Shown here one piece after another: positions 2,106-12,313 of a DNA stretch of 12,783 nt. The translations under genes and the position numbers were made by a program. The notes below the pieces were generated by a model. That model did no database searches and was not told where the DNA came from. It was given only the letters and a program-made list of their open reading frames with translations. The stretch's first letter is position 1, and each line of letters opens with the position of its first letter. Origin of the DNA: a virus (taxonomy: Duplodnaviria; Heunggongvirae; Uroviricota; Caudoviricetes). The stretch covers positions 106,710 through 119,492 of the IMG/VR virus record IMGVR_UViG_3300031772_000004. One strand, given 5' to 3'.

Positions 2106-2756
2106 TCAATCAGTATTTGCATGATGGTCAGGCGAATATAAACTCTTTTTATCACAAATCGCTTTAATCTCTGTTAGTTTCATTGGTTTTTTAAATACAT
2201 CCCATGATACATCAATTATTTTTCCGCACACATCCGTTTCAATCAAATGGTCTTTGATATTGCCGTGGCAATGACCATGACACATAATACTTCCATGACT
2301 AATATGATTCCACGATTTTATAGGATAGTGGCAGCAAATATAATCTTGGTGCTTATAGGCAACTTCCAAATAATTACCAACAAAAATTACATTCTTGTAT
2401 TTTAGTGGATAGATTTCCACATCAGCAACACCATATTGCTCTTTTAGTTGTTGGGTGTAGATTTCTGACACTCTTGAATTATGATTGCCCCATAGCATGT
2501 ATATGGTTTGACAATTTATTCTATTCAAATAGGTATAACACTCTTCTATTGAAGTGTTTAGGCAGAAATCACCAATGTATAGCAATATATCTGTTGTTGC
2601 TATCGTATTATTTACGGTAAGTAGAATATCATTGGTATGCGTATAATAGTCATTGTAACCTCTTGGCTTATATATAAAATCTCTCTTATGGCCAAGATGA
2701 AAGTCCGATGCAATATACACATTTTGCGAATCTAAAAATTTAATCTTATTCAACAT
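2106..2756 (-). CDS. Calcineurin-like metallophosphoesterase (phage type)
   Basis: All five metal-binding motifs in order: SDFHLGH, IGDF, WGNHN, CHYP, HGHCHG. Confidence 0.9.
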   Translation of the reverse strand: MLNKIKFLDSQNVYIASDFHLGHKRDFIYKPRGYNDYYTHTNDILLTVNNTIATTDILLYIGDFCLNTSIEECYTYLNRINCQTIYMLWGNHNSRVSEIYTQQLKEQYGVADVEIYPLKYKNVIFVGNYLEVAYKHQDYICCHYPIKSWNHISHGSIMCHGHCHGNIKDHLIETDVCGKIIDVSWDVFKKPMKLTEIKAICDKKSLYSPDHHANTD

Positions 2757-3076: not shown

Positions 3077-3748
3077 ATGAATGTTATTTCTCCCCCCAAT
3101 CGAAAATGTGAATATGGTTGTCTAATGGCAATAATTTCACCTAAAACCAGTAAAAATATTGTTAAATTTGGTAAAACCGCTATTCCTGACAAAAATTTGT
3201 ATATCGGGCCGCCTGAGGATGAATTAGGCAGAGACACAGAGCCACATGTTACTTTAAAGTTTGGATTTACTCCTGACTTAACCGAACCTCAGATTCTCAG
3301 CATAATCAAGGAATTAAATAAGCGTATAATCAAAGAATCGTTAAAAGAGATGGGTGGCAAATATGTTATCCGCGCAGGCGGTGGAAGTGGGACAAGAGAA
3401 CTTGAAGATGATGAGTTTAGAAGTAGTTTGCTATCAATGGAAGAAAATAAAAATAAGAAACCCACTTGGAAAATATATGCCGAAGGTATAACTATTTTTG
3501 ATAGCAAAAAAGAATATGATGTGGTAAAGTTTGATATAAAAAAAGACCCAATTCTTACTGAGATTCATTCTATATGTAATAGATACCCCAGCGTAAATAA
3601 GTATCCATCATATAACCCCCATATGACTATTGCTTATGTAAAAAAAGGTACTTTCCCACAAAGAGTATCACAAAAGAATATTCCCTTCAGCATTGCAAAC
3701 TTAAAATATTCTAGTATGGATGGTTCAAAACGCTACTACGATTTATAA
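3077..3748 (+). CDS. 2H phosphoesterase (2'-5' RNA ligase-like / T4 57B-Acb1-like) with an internal ~48-aa insertion
   Basis: Two HxT motifs, PHVTL (H57) and PHMTI (H182); N-terminal YGCLMA and C-terminal YNPHMTIAY resemble phage 2H proteins. Confidence 0.8.
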   Translation: MNVISPPNRKCEYGCLMAIISPKTSKNIVKFGKTAIPDKNLYIGPPEDELGRDTEPHVTLKFGFTPDLTEPQILSIIKELNKRIIKESLKEMGGKYVIRAGGGSGTRELEDDEFRSSLLSMEENKNKKPTWKIYAEGITIFDSKKEYDVVKFDIKKDPILTEIHSICNRYPSVNKYPSYNPHMTIAYVKKGTFPQRVSQKNIPFSIANLKYSSMDGSKRYYDL

Positions 3749-6165: not shown

Positions 6166-6193
6166 TTGACAATTAGTTCAATAATGTTATACT
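6166..6193 (+). promoter_or_regulatory. Sigma70-like promoter TTGACA-N16-TATACT with extended TG
   Basis: TTGACA 6166-6171, TG 6185-6186, TATACT 6188-6193; ATG at 6201. Confidence 0.7.
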
Positions 6194-6200
6194 TACATTC

Positions 6201-6452
6201 ATGACAAATATATTAAATAATACAGACAAGCCAAATGTTCGCGTTACTATAAATGATACCAGCGAAGTTATTTGTGAACAATGCAGTGGTAATACATTTA
6301 TAGAATCAGTTTTGCTGAGAAAGGTTAGCGCCTTACTTACAGGAGCAGAAAAAGATGCTTATATCCCAATACCTGTATTCTGTTGCGTTAAGTGTAATGG
6401 TGTGAATAGTGAATTCATTCCCCTTGAATTAAAAAACAAAATTGTAACCTAG
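6201..6452 (+). CDS. Small zinc-ribbon protein
   Basis: Two CxxC pairs (CEQC, CVKC) in 83 aa. Confidence 0.75.
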   Translation: MTNILNNTDKPNVRVTINDTSEVICEQCSGNTFIESVLLRKVSALLTGAEKDAYIPIPVFCCVKCNGVNSEFIPLELKNKIVT

Positions 6453-6527
6453 GGGTTGTAGCTTAATTGGTAAAGCACCACAATGGCATTGTGGGGAGTG
6501 AGGGTTCAAGTCCCTTCAACTCCACCA
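6452..6527 (+). tRNA. tRNA-Ala(GGC), 76 nt, CCA encoded
   Basis: Full cloverleaf: acceptor GGGGTTG/CAACTCC with the G3:U70 alanine determinant, D-arm GCTT/AAGC, anticodon stem CCACA/TGTGG with loop ATGGCAT (A32-U38 as in bacterial tRNA-Ala GGC), T-arm GAGGG-TTCAAGT-CCCTT, then A73 and CCA. Confidence 0.97.
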
Positions 6528-7220: not shown

Positions 7221-8003
7221 TTATGTTACGGAGCTAGTCATTCCAAATATTGCACTACCTGAGCAACTATAAAGATCTGTTGCCGTAATTGTAAATGAGA
7301 ATGAACCTGTTGCGGTTAATGCGCTAGATGTAATCAATCCCGTAGCTGCAAATAACGCCGAACCCGATGGCAATGTTCCCGCTGACTTTGTATATGTATA
7401 AGGAATGTGTCCACCAGAAGCGGTAATAGCAGCCCTATAAGCTGACCCACTAACACCATTTGTAACACTTCCATTATCAGTAAGAGTTATTGTTGGACAA
7501 ACGTAAGCAGCAACCAAAACCGTAAATGAACCAGTAGCGTTGCCACCATTGGAATCTAACACTCCAATCCTAAAGCTGGCCGTTTGTATCGTGGTTAATA
7601 CCCCAGAAATGATACCTGTTGTAACAAGTGAACCCGTTAAAGCAGTTCCAGATGGAAGTGAACCACTAACTAAAGTAAAAGTATACGGAGGAATTGGCCA
7701 ACCACCTGTAGCATCTATTGTCGCGGTATACGATGAACTTAAATTACTATTTGGAACTGTACCAGAAACAGATAGAGGATCTGCGGCAAATGCAGCATGA
7801 CCACCTGCGCCGGCGCCCGGCGCAGCATTACCACTTTGAACAGATGGTGCAGTCATTCCAGGAGGTTCACTTGCTTCACTTAACATTTGGACAAGAGTTT
7901 GATTAAATTCAAGTAAAAGTTGTTTATAACCCGTCATTATTCTATCCATCGGTAAATGTTTGTGGAGCCGATAATATGTTTGCCAATCTATTAAGTCGTT
8001 CAT
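7221..8003 (-). CDS. Putative Ig-domain (He_PIG-like) protein, two repeats; probably virion-associated or adhesion-related
   Basis: Two repeats of the pattern A.GG..PYT(F/Y)....G.LP.G...G.I; Thr/Ser/Gly-rich. Start reassigned to ATG 8003 (260 aa) because the longer ORF extension overlaps a promoter and structured RNA, and TATATTTAT lies 6 nt upstream of 8003. Confidence 0.75.
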   Translation of the reverse strand: MNDLIDWQTYYRLHKHLPMDRIMTGYKQLLLEFNQTLVQMLSEASEPPGMTAPSVQSGNAAPGAGAGGHAAFAADPLSVSGTVPNSNLSSSYTATIDATGGWPIPPYTFTLVSGSLPSGTALTGSLVTTGIISGVLTTIQTASFRIGVLDSNGGNATGSFTVLVAAYVCPTITLTDNGSVTNGVSGSAYRAAITASGGHIPYTYTKSAGTLPSGSALFAATGLITSSALTATGSFSFTITATDLYSCSGSAIFGMTSSVT

Positions 8004-8037
8004 ATATGTATAAATATAATCGTATTTACGATTTCGA

Positions 8038-8066
8038 TTGACAATTTTACAATTCTCATATATATT
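8038..8066 (+). promoter_or_regulatory. Sigma70-like promoter TTGACA-N17-TATATT driving the RNA cassette
   Basis: TTGACA 8038-8043, TATATT 8061-8066; no plus-strand ORF follows, only structured non-coding sequence. Confidence 0.7.
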
Positions 8067-8070
8067 ATAG

Positions 8071-8185
8071 ATGTTGCATGCAAAGAAAAGTGATGCACCT
8101 ACGGTCAAAGGGGTGTAGATGCTTGGCGGACAACCGCTTAAGGGTTCGGACGACTGCCACAGGGGTACAACTCCCAACTAGACCA
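8071..8185 (+). ncRNA. Unidentified ~115-nt structured RNA ending in ACCA
   Basis: GC-rich island after the promoter, with hairpins GCGG-ACAA-CCGC, GCAcCTAC/GTAGaTGC and GGG-GTACAACT-CCC (T-loop-like), ending ...GACCA before an AT-rich spacer. Boundaries are inferred. Confidence 0.45.
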
Positions 8186-8202
8186 TAATTTTTGTTCTTT
8201 AA

Positions 8203-8559
8203 AAATAAATATAGTCGATTGTTCGCGGCAACAATAGAAATGGCTTAAACCCTCTGGCGTTAAAGGAAAGCAACACGCCTTTTTACAGTTTTTTACCTAT
8301 ACGGTGGCTGCACACTACCTGTCAACAGGCACAAGTAAAAACGAAACTTAGTTGCGAGTTGGCGGCGAGGACGAACCAACCTATTGTTGCTGAGGAAATT
8401 CGCGTCTGCACAACCTAATGTGGCAGGATAATTCCGCTATGACCACAGAAGCAGCAATCTAAATTAGCTTAGTGTGTCGGTTGCACAATAATAGCTTGGT
8501 TAGAGCTCAGTCAAATGAACGATTAGAAACAAAAACGCGGTTATGAGCTATATTTATTT
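8203..8559 (+). ncRNA. rnpB: RNase P RNA, variant lacking most of the S-domain and carrying a 143-nt P3 insertion
   Basis: CR-I GAGGAAATTCGCGTCTGC (8392-8409) and CR-V ACAAAAACGCGGTTAT (8529-8544) align without gaps to E. coli GAGGAAAGUCCGGGCUCC and ACAGAACCCGGCUUAU, with compensatory changes in P4. Helices: P1 8203-8214/8548-8559 (12 perfect bp), P2 8217-8224/8517-8524, P3 8228-8237/8381-8390 (10 perfect bp), P4 8397-8405/8535-8542 with the bulged U, P5 8406-8409/8451-8454. J5/15 CAA and a CR-IV-like AGTCAAATG are present. Confidence 0.88.
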
Positions 8560-8564
8560 AATGT

Positions 8565-8648
8565 GCCCGTGTATCGTCGCCGTTTCCTAAACGGTAGAAA
8601 CGTAAATGGAAATTGAAAATGCAGGTTCGATTCCTGTCTCGGGCGCCA
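8565..8648 (+). tRNA. Atypical tRNA-Arg(CCU)-like RNA, 84 nt: no canonical D-arm, 25-nt extra region, CCA encoded
   Basis: Acceptor GCCCGTG/CTCGGGC (one T-T mismatch), G73, CCA; T-arm GCAGG-TTCGATT-CCTGT; anticodon arm GCCGT-TTCCTAA-ACGGT; only 7 nt (TATCGTC) between the acceptor and anticodon stems. Confidence 0.75.
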
Positions 8649-8664
8649 TTTTTTATCAATTGAT

Positions 8665-9528
8665 ATGATATTTATAATAGTGAAGTCATATACAATTGAT
8701 ACCATTTTAAAAGAAGTTTATTTAAATAAACCTGTAGACGAAGATCTCAACACAAAATTCTCTGATTTCACATCTTATTTGTCGGGTATGGCTAAAGGCG
8801 TCGTTGATAAACTGTTTTTCTTAAAATTCATCAAACCTGATATGCTTGTTGATTTTGGCTCAGCCGATGGATTTATCCTTAAACAAATTCACAAATATAA
8901 CCCAAACATAAATCTAATCGGATATGACATATCTCCCGATATGATTACAATAGCAAAAGAAAAGATTCCAGATATTCAATTTACAAATAATTGGTTAGAT
9001 GCAATTAAAGATGTCAAGCGTTATAAAAATTCCTGTTTATTACTATCATCTGTAATTCATGAAGTTTATTCCTATTCGACTTCTGAAGCCATCGAATATT
9101 TTTGGGAAAGTATATTTAATGCTGGTTTTGAATACATTGTCATCCGTGATACCATTCCATCAGAAAAAATTGAAAAGGTCATCAACTTCAAGAAGGATGT
9201 GGAGCAAGTCAAAAAAATTGTTGATCCAAAATTGTTAGATGATTATGAAAATAGTTGGGGACCAATTGATAAAAGTTATAAAAATTTCATTCGATTTGTA
9301 TTGATGTACAGATATAGAAATAATTGGTCGCGAGAAAGATTAGAAGATTATTTGTCATTAACATATGAATCAATGCTGCTTAAAATACTTCCAAAGTATA
9401 ATGACAGATACAAAATCATATACGATAAGAAATTTAAGTTTAAGCCAATCCAAACTTCTTTTGCAAAAGACTTTAATATACCATTACGACAAGATATTCA
9501 TTTGAAGATGATATTGCGACACAAATAA
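8665..9528 (+). CDS. Class I SAM-dependent methyltransferase (start may be GTG 8680)
   Basis: Motif I VDFGSADG, motif II GYDISPDMI, then LLLSSVIHEVYSY and IVIRD; substrate unknown. Confidence 0.8.
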   Translation: MIFIIVKSYTIDTILKEVYLNKPVDEDLNTKFSDFTSYLSGMAKGVVDKLFFLKFIKPDMLVDFGSADGFILKQIHKYNPNINLIGYDISPDMITIAKEKIPDIQFTNNWLDAIKDVKRYKNSCLLLSSVIHEVYSYSTSEAIEYFWESIFNAGFEYIVIRDTIPSEKIEKVINFKKDVEQVKKIVDPKLLDDYENSWGPIDKSYKNFIRFVLMYRYRNNWSRERLEDYLSLTYESMLLKILPKYNDRYKIIYDKKFKFKPIQTSFAKDFNIPLRQDIHLKMILRHK

Positions 9529-9589
9529 CTATTATAAATGGTTGATTATCAAGTAGTTATAAGAAAAGTAAAATTTTTGTAAAAAGGTG

Positions 9590-9617
9590 TTGACTTTTTA
9601 GTCCGAATCCATATACT
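9590..9617 (+). promoter_or_regulatory. Sigma70-like promoter TTGACT-N16-TATACT upstream of the giant ncRNA
   Basis: TTGACT 9590-9595 with an A-rich upstream tract, TATACT 9612-9617. Confidence 0.7.
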
Positions 9618-9623
9618 TATGTT

Positions 9624-10515
9624 TACTGATTTGAGATGTTCCTGTTCTTTGATTTTCGTTTTAAGGGCGGTATAGCGTCCTGATACTTCCGCAAGGGAGT
9701 ATTTAAGATAAACTGCAGTAATGCAGCCAAAGGGGTGAGTCCCAAGACTCTCCCGCCATTCAACTGGCCACCGATACAAAAGCAAGCTCTGTAAGCTTAT
9801 TTGGAAACAAATGAGATACATCTGAAGCTGGTTAGCAAACGAATCCGGTATGTGACGAACAGAAAGGTTCTAACTGTCACCCGACAGTTCTTACTAATGC
9901 CCACGCGGCAACAGTTAAGGTTAAGAGTTCAAGCGAAGTCGTTTAGTTCGAGCCTCGCAAGCAAGAGCTTAATGATAGATTGATAGAAAGTGGGCTGGGT
10001 TACTCTATGCACACAATCTTGAAAATCGGATGAGTACTCGCAAGGGAAAGTCAGGTGGTGTGTTGCATTCTGTAGCTGTAACAGGTTATGGAACAACTAG
10101 CAACGCACATCACACTTGGGTTTGACATAGCTCGATAGAGCGCTAGTATATTAAACTAGAGGTATGGCTTAACCGCCGTTCTCAATAAAATGCAAAGTCG
10201 TTGCTTCCGATAACGGAAAAAGTCTTAATTCTCTGCCCGCAAGGGAACAGAGACACTTGATTCTCGCAAGGATGATGGTGTCAGTACGGAGATTGACGGA
10301 GGGTGTCGCAGCTCTTACTGCTCGCAAGTCAGACGTTGGTTGAAATGCTGAATATGTTATCGGTAAACTTGAATCGCCTCAAGTATAAAAAGGCAGACCT
10401 GTTAAATACCTGATACGTTCCCAGCGGACGGTCAAGGTGGATAAGTGTGAAGGTATCTCGCAAGGATACGATAATACTTCAAGGTTAACATTTTAAGCTG
10501 TAGTCTCAGGCTTGA
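9624..10515 (+). ncRNA. Giant structured ncRNA (~890 nt), GOLLD/ROOL-like; exact family unconfirmed
   Basis: No credible ORF over about 1 kb in a gene-dense genome; visibly GC-richer than the flanks; seven C-GCAA-G tetraloop motifs (9690, 9956, 10039, 10238, 10265, 10323, 10459); further hairpins; long-range pairing TGAGATACA 9812-9820 with TGTAGTCTCA 10499-10508; own promoter. Ends are approximate. Confidence 0.75.
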
Positions 10516-11840: not shown

Positions 11841-11870
11841 AAAACCGGCATTTTTTAGTGCCGGTTTTTC
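11841..11870. terminator. Intrinsic terminator-like hairpin, possibly bidirectional
   Basis: AAAACCGGCA (11841-11850) pairs perfectly with TGCCGGTTTT (11859-11868), 8-nt loop, A and T tracts on either side. Confidence 0.75.
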
Positions 11871-11884
11871 TATTTATATTGTAT

Positions 11885-12313
11885 ATGATAGATTCGCCAA
11901 ACAAAATAATGGTAATACCACGAATAGCTGCACAATATGTAACAAATCCAGAATTTGGCGTTGTTAGTTTTCATGGTGGCGGAGAAAAACATACCTATCC
12001 AAAAGTAATAAAAAATGTATTATATATAGATGTAGCCGATTTAGATCCAGAAAAGAAGAATCATATAAAAGTGGCAGAACGATATAATTTAAGAATATTT
12101 GATAAAGAAGACGCAAAAAAACTGGTCCAATTTGTTAATACCATCAAACCAACAGCGAAAAAATTACTCTTTCAATGTGAAGCAGGTGTTAGTCGTTCGG
12201 CTGGAGCTGCCTCAGCCGTTTCAAAAGCATGGTTTAATGATGACTCTAAATTCATACATGAAAGTATTAATAGATGGATATATAATTTGATTCTAAAGGA
12301 GTTTGGCAAATGA
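11885..12313 (+). CDS. Protein-tyrosine/dual-specificity phosphatase-like protein (CX5R)
   Basis: P-loop FQCEAGVSRSAG and an upstream acidic loop. Start moved to ATG 11885 because the 11858 start lies inside the terminator and TATTTAT precedes 11885 by 7 nt. Confidence 0.8.
   Translation: MIDSPNKIMVIPRIAAQYVTNPEFGVVSFHGGGEKHTYPKVIKNVLYIDVADLDPEKKNHIKVAERYNLRIFDKEDAKKLVQFVNTIKPTAKKLLFQCEAGVSRSAGAASAVSKAWFNDDSKFIHESINRWIYNLILKEFGK

Follow-up and report, generated by a model that had tools for sequence, protein, structure and literature searches.

The stretch of DNA analysed here, which we call the window, is the final 12.8 kb (12,783 nt) of a 119.5-kb IMG/VR virus record (IMGVR_UViG_3300031772_000004; 33% G+C). 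The source contig, whose completeness is estimated at ∼39% by CheckV, probably comes from a jumbo phage. Positions 8004-8664 of the window form a 661-nt gap that is flanked by divergent genes and contains no credible open reading frame (ORF). In this gap we find, on the plus strand, a miniature RNase P RNA of a phage type (RNA 2, 8203-8559) and, right behind it, an arginine tRNA in which the strands of the core are rewired (RNA 3, 8565-8648); both are preceded by a promoter and a leader (RNA 1, 8071-8185). The initial annotation of this locus had described an operon of three RNAs with no protein gene. The absence of protein genes from the gap stands: the ORF scan detected no plus-strand ORF of at least 40 amino acids in 8004-8664, and the minus-strand ORF at 7221-8177 has its true start at ATG 8003 (MNDLID...), which leaves the gap clear. 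The term 'RNA-only' may not hold for the operon, as a methyltransferase gene on the same strand begins 17 or 32 nt past the tRNA. At curated thresholds, just two RNAs of the window are matched by Rfam, a tRNA-Ala at 6452-6524 and a GOLLD RNA at 10053-10512, and ARAGORN calls that tRNA-Ala as the single canonical tRNA of the whole 119-kb contig. A blastn search with 7900-8800 returned zero matches among the INPHARED phages.

The fold of RNA 2 can be traced helix by helix. It is closed by a 13-bp P1 (8203-8215/8547-8559), which begins 4 nt past the conserved region CR-V as it does in relatives, and followed inwards by P2 (8217-8224/8517-8524) and P3 (8228-8237/8381-8390). CR-I (8392-8404; GAGGAAA.UC) and CR-V (8529-8543; ACA.AA....G.UUA) form P4 (8397-8405/8535-8542), which has standard pairs at 8 of 8 positions and a bulged U8400, and CR-IV (AG...AAU) is represented by AGUCAAAUG near 8509-8517, ahead of the 3' strand of P2. 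P5 is found at 8406-8409/8451-8454, and the alignment of the family covariance model described below places at 8498-8500 the GGU beside P15, the trinucleotide that pairs with the 3' end of tRNA. The specificity domain (S-domain; P7-P14 with CR-II and CR-III) is missing: the strands of P5 are separated by ∼41 nt (8410-8450), in which a single 5-bp hairpin (8419-8423/8443-8447) takes its place. A sensitive Rfam scan matched RNA 2 to the archaeal RNase P model (RNaseP_arch) at 35.1 bits (E = 2.5e-8); within this match, the conserved regions CR-I, CR-IV and CR-V follow one another as expected.

That RNA 2 belongs to a family came from a scan of IMG/VR with the core pattern, which matched 88 places and matched the window as well. 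Among the first 80 loci screened, the complementarity of P4 was bimodal, with 27 showing a perfect 8/8 helix with the bulged U and most others showing 3-6 pairs. We built a covariance model, R1, from 18 phage copies with the window left out. In this alignment, whose consensus comprises P4, P5, the single hairpin replacing the S-domain and the P15 region, a compensatory double change is present in at least one sequence at 22 of the 26 pairs. R1 scores 8359-8556 of the window at 117 bits (E = 2e-28), other members outside the training set scoring 24.5-157 bits, and RNA 2 retains all 29 invariant family columns and standard pairs at 26/26 positions. The RNase P RNA proposed by the initial annotation is thereby confirmed. 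Judged from these conserved letters and pairs, RNA 2 is a genuine RNase P RNA predicted to have the whole catalytic domain without the domain that reads the elbow of tRNA.

The ribozyme copies reside on large phage contigs, of which some have terminal repeats and are complete, and most copies lie within tRNA arrays on the same strand, often near a transfer-messenger RNA (tmRNA). Solitary relatives often have U-runs or a terminator directly 3' of the ribozyme. One copy, at locus L063, passes the Rfam threshold for bacterial type A (RF00010) with 118.5 bits. The copy in the window differs from the rest of the family in that it has no tRNA array around it and comes with its own promoter, a 130-nt leader, a 143-nt insert in P3 and a rewired tRNA neighbour; a metagenome scan for ribozymes carrying its exact P4 found none. 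An encoded CCA was considered as a trait of the family and rejected: across the loci with a ribozyme, only 60 of 320 tRNAs have it in their gene.

Bacterial type A RNase P RNA (E. coli M1 RNA, rnpB; RF00010) shares with RNA 2 helices P1-P5, CR-I, CR-IV and CR-V, the bulged U of P4 and the GGU beside P15. RNA 2 differs from it in being phage-encoded, in having the 5-bp hairpin for P7-P14, in the insert in P3 and in giving no RF00010 match. The type T RNase P RNAs of Pyrobaculum and relatives (RF02357), which are ∼200 nt long, also lack the S-domain, as does the phage family, but they are archaeal and go with archaeal proteins. The window gives no RF02357 match, and the reduction in phages would therefore be independent of that in type T. 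In the literature covered by our full-text search, no phage-encoded RNase P RNA had been reported.

The loss of the S-domain raises the question of whether RNA 2 is catalytic at all, as an RNase P-like RNA could instead act as a decoy and titrate the RnpA protein of the host or pre-tRNAs. Such a role would fit with the missing S-domain and with a search of the contig that found no phage rnpA. It was once proposed for the nearest match in the literature, the RNase P-like RNA of camelpox virus, which is inactive in vitro (PMC3001073). However, the camelpox RNA belongs to a eukaryotic virus and is loosely similar in structure, whereas in the phage family the catalytic core is complete and supported by covariation, and RNA 2 itself has kept all family-invariant positions of that core, including the bulged U of P4 and the GGU next to P15, none of which a decoy needs. 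Moreover, Pyrobaculum shows that type T RNase P RNAs can be active without an S-domain. We consider a decoy highly improbable.

The perfect 10-bp P3 helix of RNA 2, formed by an inverted repeat, abuts CR-I and encloses 143 nt (8238-8380) that are predicted to be structured (fold z −2.2); of 200 shuffled sequences, 196 fold less well than the expanded P3. The insert matched zero Rfam families and showed no likeness to an S-domain. Such an insert would not fit into the 21 relatives whose P1 is mapped, which measure 182-225 nt in total. At locus L032 (IMGVR_UViG_3300033182_000991), the 5' strand of P1 lies 664 nt upstream of CR-I and an ORF for an HNH endonuclease is found within the P3 position, ∼640 nt upstream of CR-I, at the same site as the insert of the window. 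P3 is therefore predicted to be an insertion site that the ribozyme tolerates, which suggests that mobile DNA or an intron may enter there. Another copy, L097:7989-8242, carries a long insert elsewhere, in the hairpin standing in for the S-domain. The loop of the P3 insert in the window (8275-8290) is 86-92% complementary over 13-14 nt to 9578-9590 and 10381-10394, in or just before the GOLLD RNA, and this is probably chance in AT-rich DNA.

RNA 3 proved to be the atypical tRNA that the initial annotation had taken it for, and it ends in GCCA, with G8645 and CCA (8646-8648) both encoded. Like canonical tRNA-Arg(CCU/UCU), it has a 7-bp acceptor stem (8565-8571/8638-8644, with a U6-U67 mismatch), U8 and A9 (8572-8573), an anticodon arm with a 5-bp stem (8579-8595; CCU at 8586-8588), a T arm with the canonical GGUUCGAUUCC (8621-8637) and an encoded CCA; its loop UUCCUAA is also that of canonical phage Arg(CCU) genes. 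The difference lies in the core. In canonical tRNA-Arg, positions 10-21 precede the anticodon arm, whereas the equivalent segment of RNA 3 lies behind it. The two strands of the D-stem (8575-8577 and its partner 8600-8602) stand on either side of the anticodon arm and the D-loop-like UAAAUGGA, which includes GGA, comes next at 8603-8610; 5 nt are left at the place of the D arm and 25 nt occupy the variable position. It is because of this relocated segment that RNA 3 is missed by both standard searches: ARAGORN never called it, relaxed settings included, and its best score with the tRNA clan of Rfam, 21 bits with the tRNA-Sec model, is below the threshold of 47.

Searching IMG/VR with the anticodon loop and a distant T-loop as a pattern gave six distinct look-alikes of RNA 3, and a model built from look-alikes, R2, added five more in tandem or nearby at 54-73 bits, with ordinary tRNAs scoring at most 39 bits. 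The ten relatives of RNA 3 come from five other phage contigs. The order of elements is the same in 11 of 11: acceptor, UA, a strand of 3-4 nt, the anticodon arm, a linker of 2-4 nt, a complementary strand of 3-4 nt, a D-loop-like UA(A/G)..GGA (similar to UAAUGGA), a short linker, the T arm and the acceptor. The helix that encloses the anticodon arm covaries (CGU/ACG, CGA/UCG, CGG/CCG, CAG/CUG, CUCU/AGAG and, read by hand in L116, GCA/UGC), with one mismatch in L108. The anticodon is CCU in the window and CCU, UCU or CCG in all ten relatives, in every case for arginine and in every case with C35. In some arrays, the rewired genes provide Arg isoacceptors for which ARAGORN calls no canonical gene in that array. 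Three rewired tRNA-Arg genes in tandem (CCG, CCU, UCU) are seen at L111:8180-8420 and two (UCU, CCU) at L113:2217-2371, each set within an ordinary tRNA array, and all five go uncalled by ARAGORN. A candidate rewired tRNA with the isoleucine anticodon GAU is present at L097:5012-5092 (36 bits on R2), at the same locus as the ribozyme copy with the long hairpin insert.

From the order of these elements, the rewiring would in effect be a circular permutation of the D/anticodon domain, in which the counterpart of positions 10-21 comes after positions 22-43, and a tRNA permuted in this way could keep the L-shape. C35 and A20 are identity elements for arginyl-tRNA synthetase (ArgRS) in E. coli; C35 is kept in RNA 3, whose GGA could supply A20, and RNA 3 would be charged with arginine. 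RNA 3 is, on its sequence features, most likely a working decoder of the codon AGG. The rewired layout is not described in a 2020 review of non-canonical tRNAs (PMC7609411), and the literature searched yielded no paper on either the phage ribozyme family or this class of tRNA-Arg.

Upstream of the two RNAs, the promoter of the initial annotation was recovered at 8038-8066 of the plus strand. It consists of TTGACA (8038-8043), a 17-nt spacer and TATATT (8061-8066), matches the sigma-70 type at 11 of 12 positions and has its expected start near 8073. Sites of at least 11/12 occur five times on the plus strand of the window where 0.46 would be expected, a count not reached in any of 300 shuffles; the tRNA-Ala unit owns one of them (6166), and the GOLLD RNA has a 10/12 site (9590). 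The near-consensus sites in the window are probably real host-type promoters. No second promoter-like site was found on the plus strand of 8067-8648. Past the CCA of RNA 3, a U6 run (8649-8654) follows directly as a weak terminator-like site, and together with a weak alternative hairpin it is all that lies between the tRNA and the methyltransferase gene.

The spacers of 17 nt (8186-8202) before RNA 2 and 5 nt (8560-8564) after it are as claimed by the initial annotation. The short gap between ribozyme and tRNA is a conserved layout of the family. Of the 21 relatives in which P1 is mapped, 10 have their next tRNA beginning 2-8 nt after P1, with a mode of 5 nt; the window, where the spacer is AAUGU, has 5 nt, even though no tRNA array surrounds it. 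On the other side, the previous tRNA ends 0-10 nt ahead of P1 in 8 of these relatives, with a 2-nt overlap in one. This layout is our best argument for a joint transcript: because the spacing in the window matches it, it is very likely that the ribozyme and RNA 3 are made as one precursor transcript with a predicted RNase P cleavage at 8564/8565, and the layout suggests that one cut at the 5' end of the tRNA also defines the 3' end of the ribozyme.

We argue that the locus is a tRNA-operon-like unit of a jumbo phage, made of promoter, leader, ribozyme and rewired tRNA-Arg, in which the ribozyme aids tRNA processing together with RnpA, and we hold this reading to be likely. Host RNA polymerase would start near 8073 and produce a transcript with the ∼130-nt leader, RNA 2, RNA 3 and perhaps the methyltransferase gene. 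RNase P activity of the host, of the phage or of both would then cut in trans at 8564/8565. This single cut would make the 5' end of the tRNA and leave the ribozyme ending 5 nt past P1, like its relatives in tRNA arrays. The ribozyme would most likely pair with the host RnpA protein and add to, or secure, the processing of tRNA 5' ends during infection. Cleavage in cis is not needed to explain the layout. Of this picture, what the two RNAs are, which families they belong to and how the spacing is conserved is shown here, whereas transcription as one unit, the cut site, catalysis, a partnership with host protein and charging with arginine are inferred. Known cases in which a non-tRNA RNA is co-transcribed with tRNAs or a tRNA-like element and RNase P sets its ends at such a neighbour are the tRNA cluster of phage T4 (stable RNAs species 1 and 2) and MALAT1-mascRNA; in contrast to these, the RNA predicted to be co-transcribed in the window would itself be an RNase P ribozyme.

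Several observations weigh against this reading. The 35.1 bits of RNA 2 with RNaseP_arch are far under the curated threshold of 84 bits, and RF00010, RF00011 and RF02357, run on the genome, gave no match for RNA 2. No rnpA gene was found on the contig, which is ∼39% complete. RNA 3 is within the training set of R2, and its own R2 score is not independent. AGG is the rarest arginine codon of the source phage (1.8 per 1000), making the need for RNA 3 not obvious, and its acceptor stem carries the U-U mismatch. Finally, this reading gives no role to the leader of 130 nt.

The initial annotation had described this leader as a structured RNA ending in ACCA, and the letters ACCA are indeed there (8182-8185, plus strand), 17 nt before P1, where relatives often have a tRNA; a T-loop-like hairpin is present at 8162-8175. 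The discrete structured RNA did not hold up. RNA 1 folds no better than shuffled sequence (z +0.26) and has no significant match in Rfam (best E 1.6). By blastn, homologues were found neither in the fetched loci nor in the rest of the genome, and a motif scan of IMG/VR returned chance coding matches only. In its relaxed and mitochondrial modes, ARAGORN draws a poor, weakly tRNA-like fold at 8112-8185, solely at a setting so lax that 10% of shuffled sequences are called too (p about 0.1). A tymovirus-type tRNA-like element (RF00233) was tried and rejected (9.4 bits against 40, E 8.3), its 21-nt acceptor pseudoknot segment being cut to 3 nt. We regard RNA 1 as a leader, not verified as a discrete structured RNA, that may be a decayed tRNA.

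If it is, the whole locus could be what remains of a decaying tRNA array, in which selection acts on the ribozyme only. RNA 1 would then be a defunct tRNA, and RNA 3, if kept, would serve only as a cleavage signal, a tRNA-like punctuation mark at which the 3' end of the ribozyme is trimmed. The tRNAs that flank P1 so closely in relatives speak for such a history, as do the position of RNA 1 in the upstream slot with its weak tRNA-like fold, the acceptor mismatch of RNA 3 and the rarity of its codon, and the single canonical tRNA in 119 kb. Yet RNA 3 retains every feature of its family (the 5-bp anticodon stem, UUCCUAA, GGA, the canonical T loop and the encoded CCA), which argues for a working tRNA. 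The tRNA-like call for RNA 1 is not significant, and, with a contig that is ∼39% complete, a tRNA array may lie elsewhere in the genome. We think it unlikely that the locus is only such a remnant.

The initial annotation had gone further and proposed a self-processing module, whose variant ribozyme releases non-canonical tRNA-like RNAs. RNA 1 and RNA 3 would be substrates that host RNase P may handle poorly. Carried further, the idea makes the ribozyme specialised for them, perhaps with the P3 insert in place of the lost S-domain. There is some appeal to this idea, as a ribozyme blind to the elbow directly adjoins a tRNA whose elbow region is rebuilt, and the P3 insert is structured and could not be held by relatives of 182-225 nt. 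To see whether the two families go together, we compared their occurrence in 11 records, the window's own included. Four of the five records with a rewired tRNA-Arg have no ribozyme, two of these four being 91% and 97% complete, and a rewired tRNA-Arg is absent from all five ribozyme-bearing records checked, three of which are complete. Nor does one occur in the flanks fetched for 29 ribozyme loci, and most ribozyme copies sit among canonical tRNAs. Both families are found together only in the phage of the window and in one 416-kb contig (behind L021 and L118), which counts in favour of a module. RNA 1, on the other hand, is unverified, and the rewired tRNA retains a normal acceptor and T arm, which together are the minimal substrate of RNase P.

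Because the two families occur independently, the specialisation of the ribozyme for odd substrates is not supported, and the self-processing module is quite unlikely. Synteny of the RNA trio, which the initial annotation had looked to, recurs nowhere: the nearest syntenic relative (L015/L016), with a methyltransferase 67% identical to that of the window, retains a divergent ribozyme upstream of the methyltransferase gene and has neither RNA 1 nor RNA 3. A bolder version is a ribozyme-substrate cassette on one transcript, in which the elbow-blind, P3-expanded ribozyme is tuned to the rewired tRNA and frees both without host RNase P, with RNA 1 as a further substrate or cofactor; we judge it very unlikely. 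The tRNA-operon-like unit, with a ribozyme that aids tRNA processing together with RnpA, is the reading that we prefer. On balance, what the initial annotation observed is largely borne out, and its interpretation about half so.

Few RNAs in biology are as conserved as RNase P RNA and the tRNA cloverleaf. A single predicted unit of 580 nt would here combine a viral RNase P ribozyme cut to its catalytic half with an arginine tRNA whose core strands are in a non-textbook order. As both families escape standard gene finders, the tRNA-processing capacity and the tRNA repertoires of phages are undercounted by current annotation. The locus is also a compact construct for asking whether an RNase P RNA is active without the S-domain, whether it needs RnpA, how a non-cloverleaf tRNA is recognised by RNase P and ArgRS, and what role the P3 insertion plays.

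The gene that follows the unit (8680-9528, plus strand) encodes a class I methyltransferase dependent on S-adenosylmethionine (SAM). Its start at GTG 8680, 32 nt past the CCA, gives 282 amino acids as in relatives, and ATG 8665, 17 nt past the CCA, is also open. Read-through into this gene is possible, as is a functional tie to RNA. The enzyme is a candidate RNA or tRNA methyltransferase; no relative was found in the PDB by sequence, and no close relative in IMG/VR. It has more than 100 wider relatives, and several among those checked (L015, L017, L108) are within phage tRNA arrays adjoining GOLLD or tmRNA. Of the wider relatives in tRNA arrays, those at L015/L016 alone keep the ribozyme, and none has RNA 1 or RNA 3 beside the gene.

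The giant non-coding RNA that the initial annotation noted downstream is a GOLLD RNA (RF02032; 10053-10512, plus strand, the part covered by Rfam), with 183.1 bits against a threshold of 150 (E = 1.4e-50). It is context, outside the unit. The presence of GOLLD within tRNA clusters is already known (PMC6582537). On the other side of the locus, relatives of the upstream Ig-domain gene and of the 396-amino-acid gene were sought in IMG/VR and none were found. The tRNA-Ala(GGC) has an arrangement of its own at 6166-6527, where the near-consensus promoter at 6166 is followed by an ORF of 83 amino acids (6201-6452) that ends exactly at the start of the tRNA (6452). On the 416-kb phage contig, a group I intron match in Rfam (L021:426-1037; intron 426-667) abuts or overlaps a tmRNA match (652-1037) on the same strand. 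Also nearby in the window are genes of a type linked to RNA repair or nucleotide signalling, namely a phosphoesterase (phrog_547; 2106-2756, minus strand), a 2H/LigT-type phosphoesterase with a weak match to Acb1 (3077-3748, plus strand) and a protein resembling dual-specificity phosphatases (11858-12313, plus strand).

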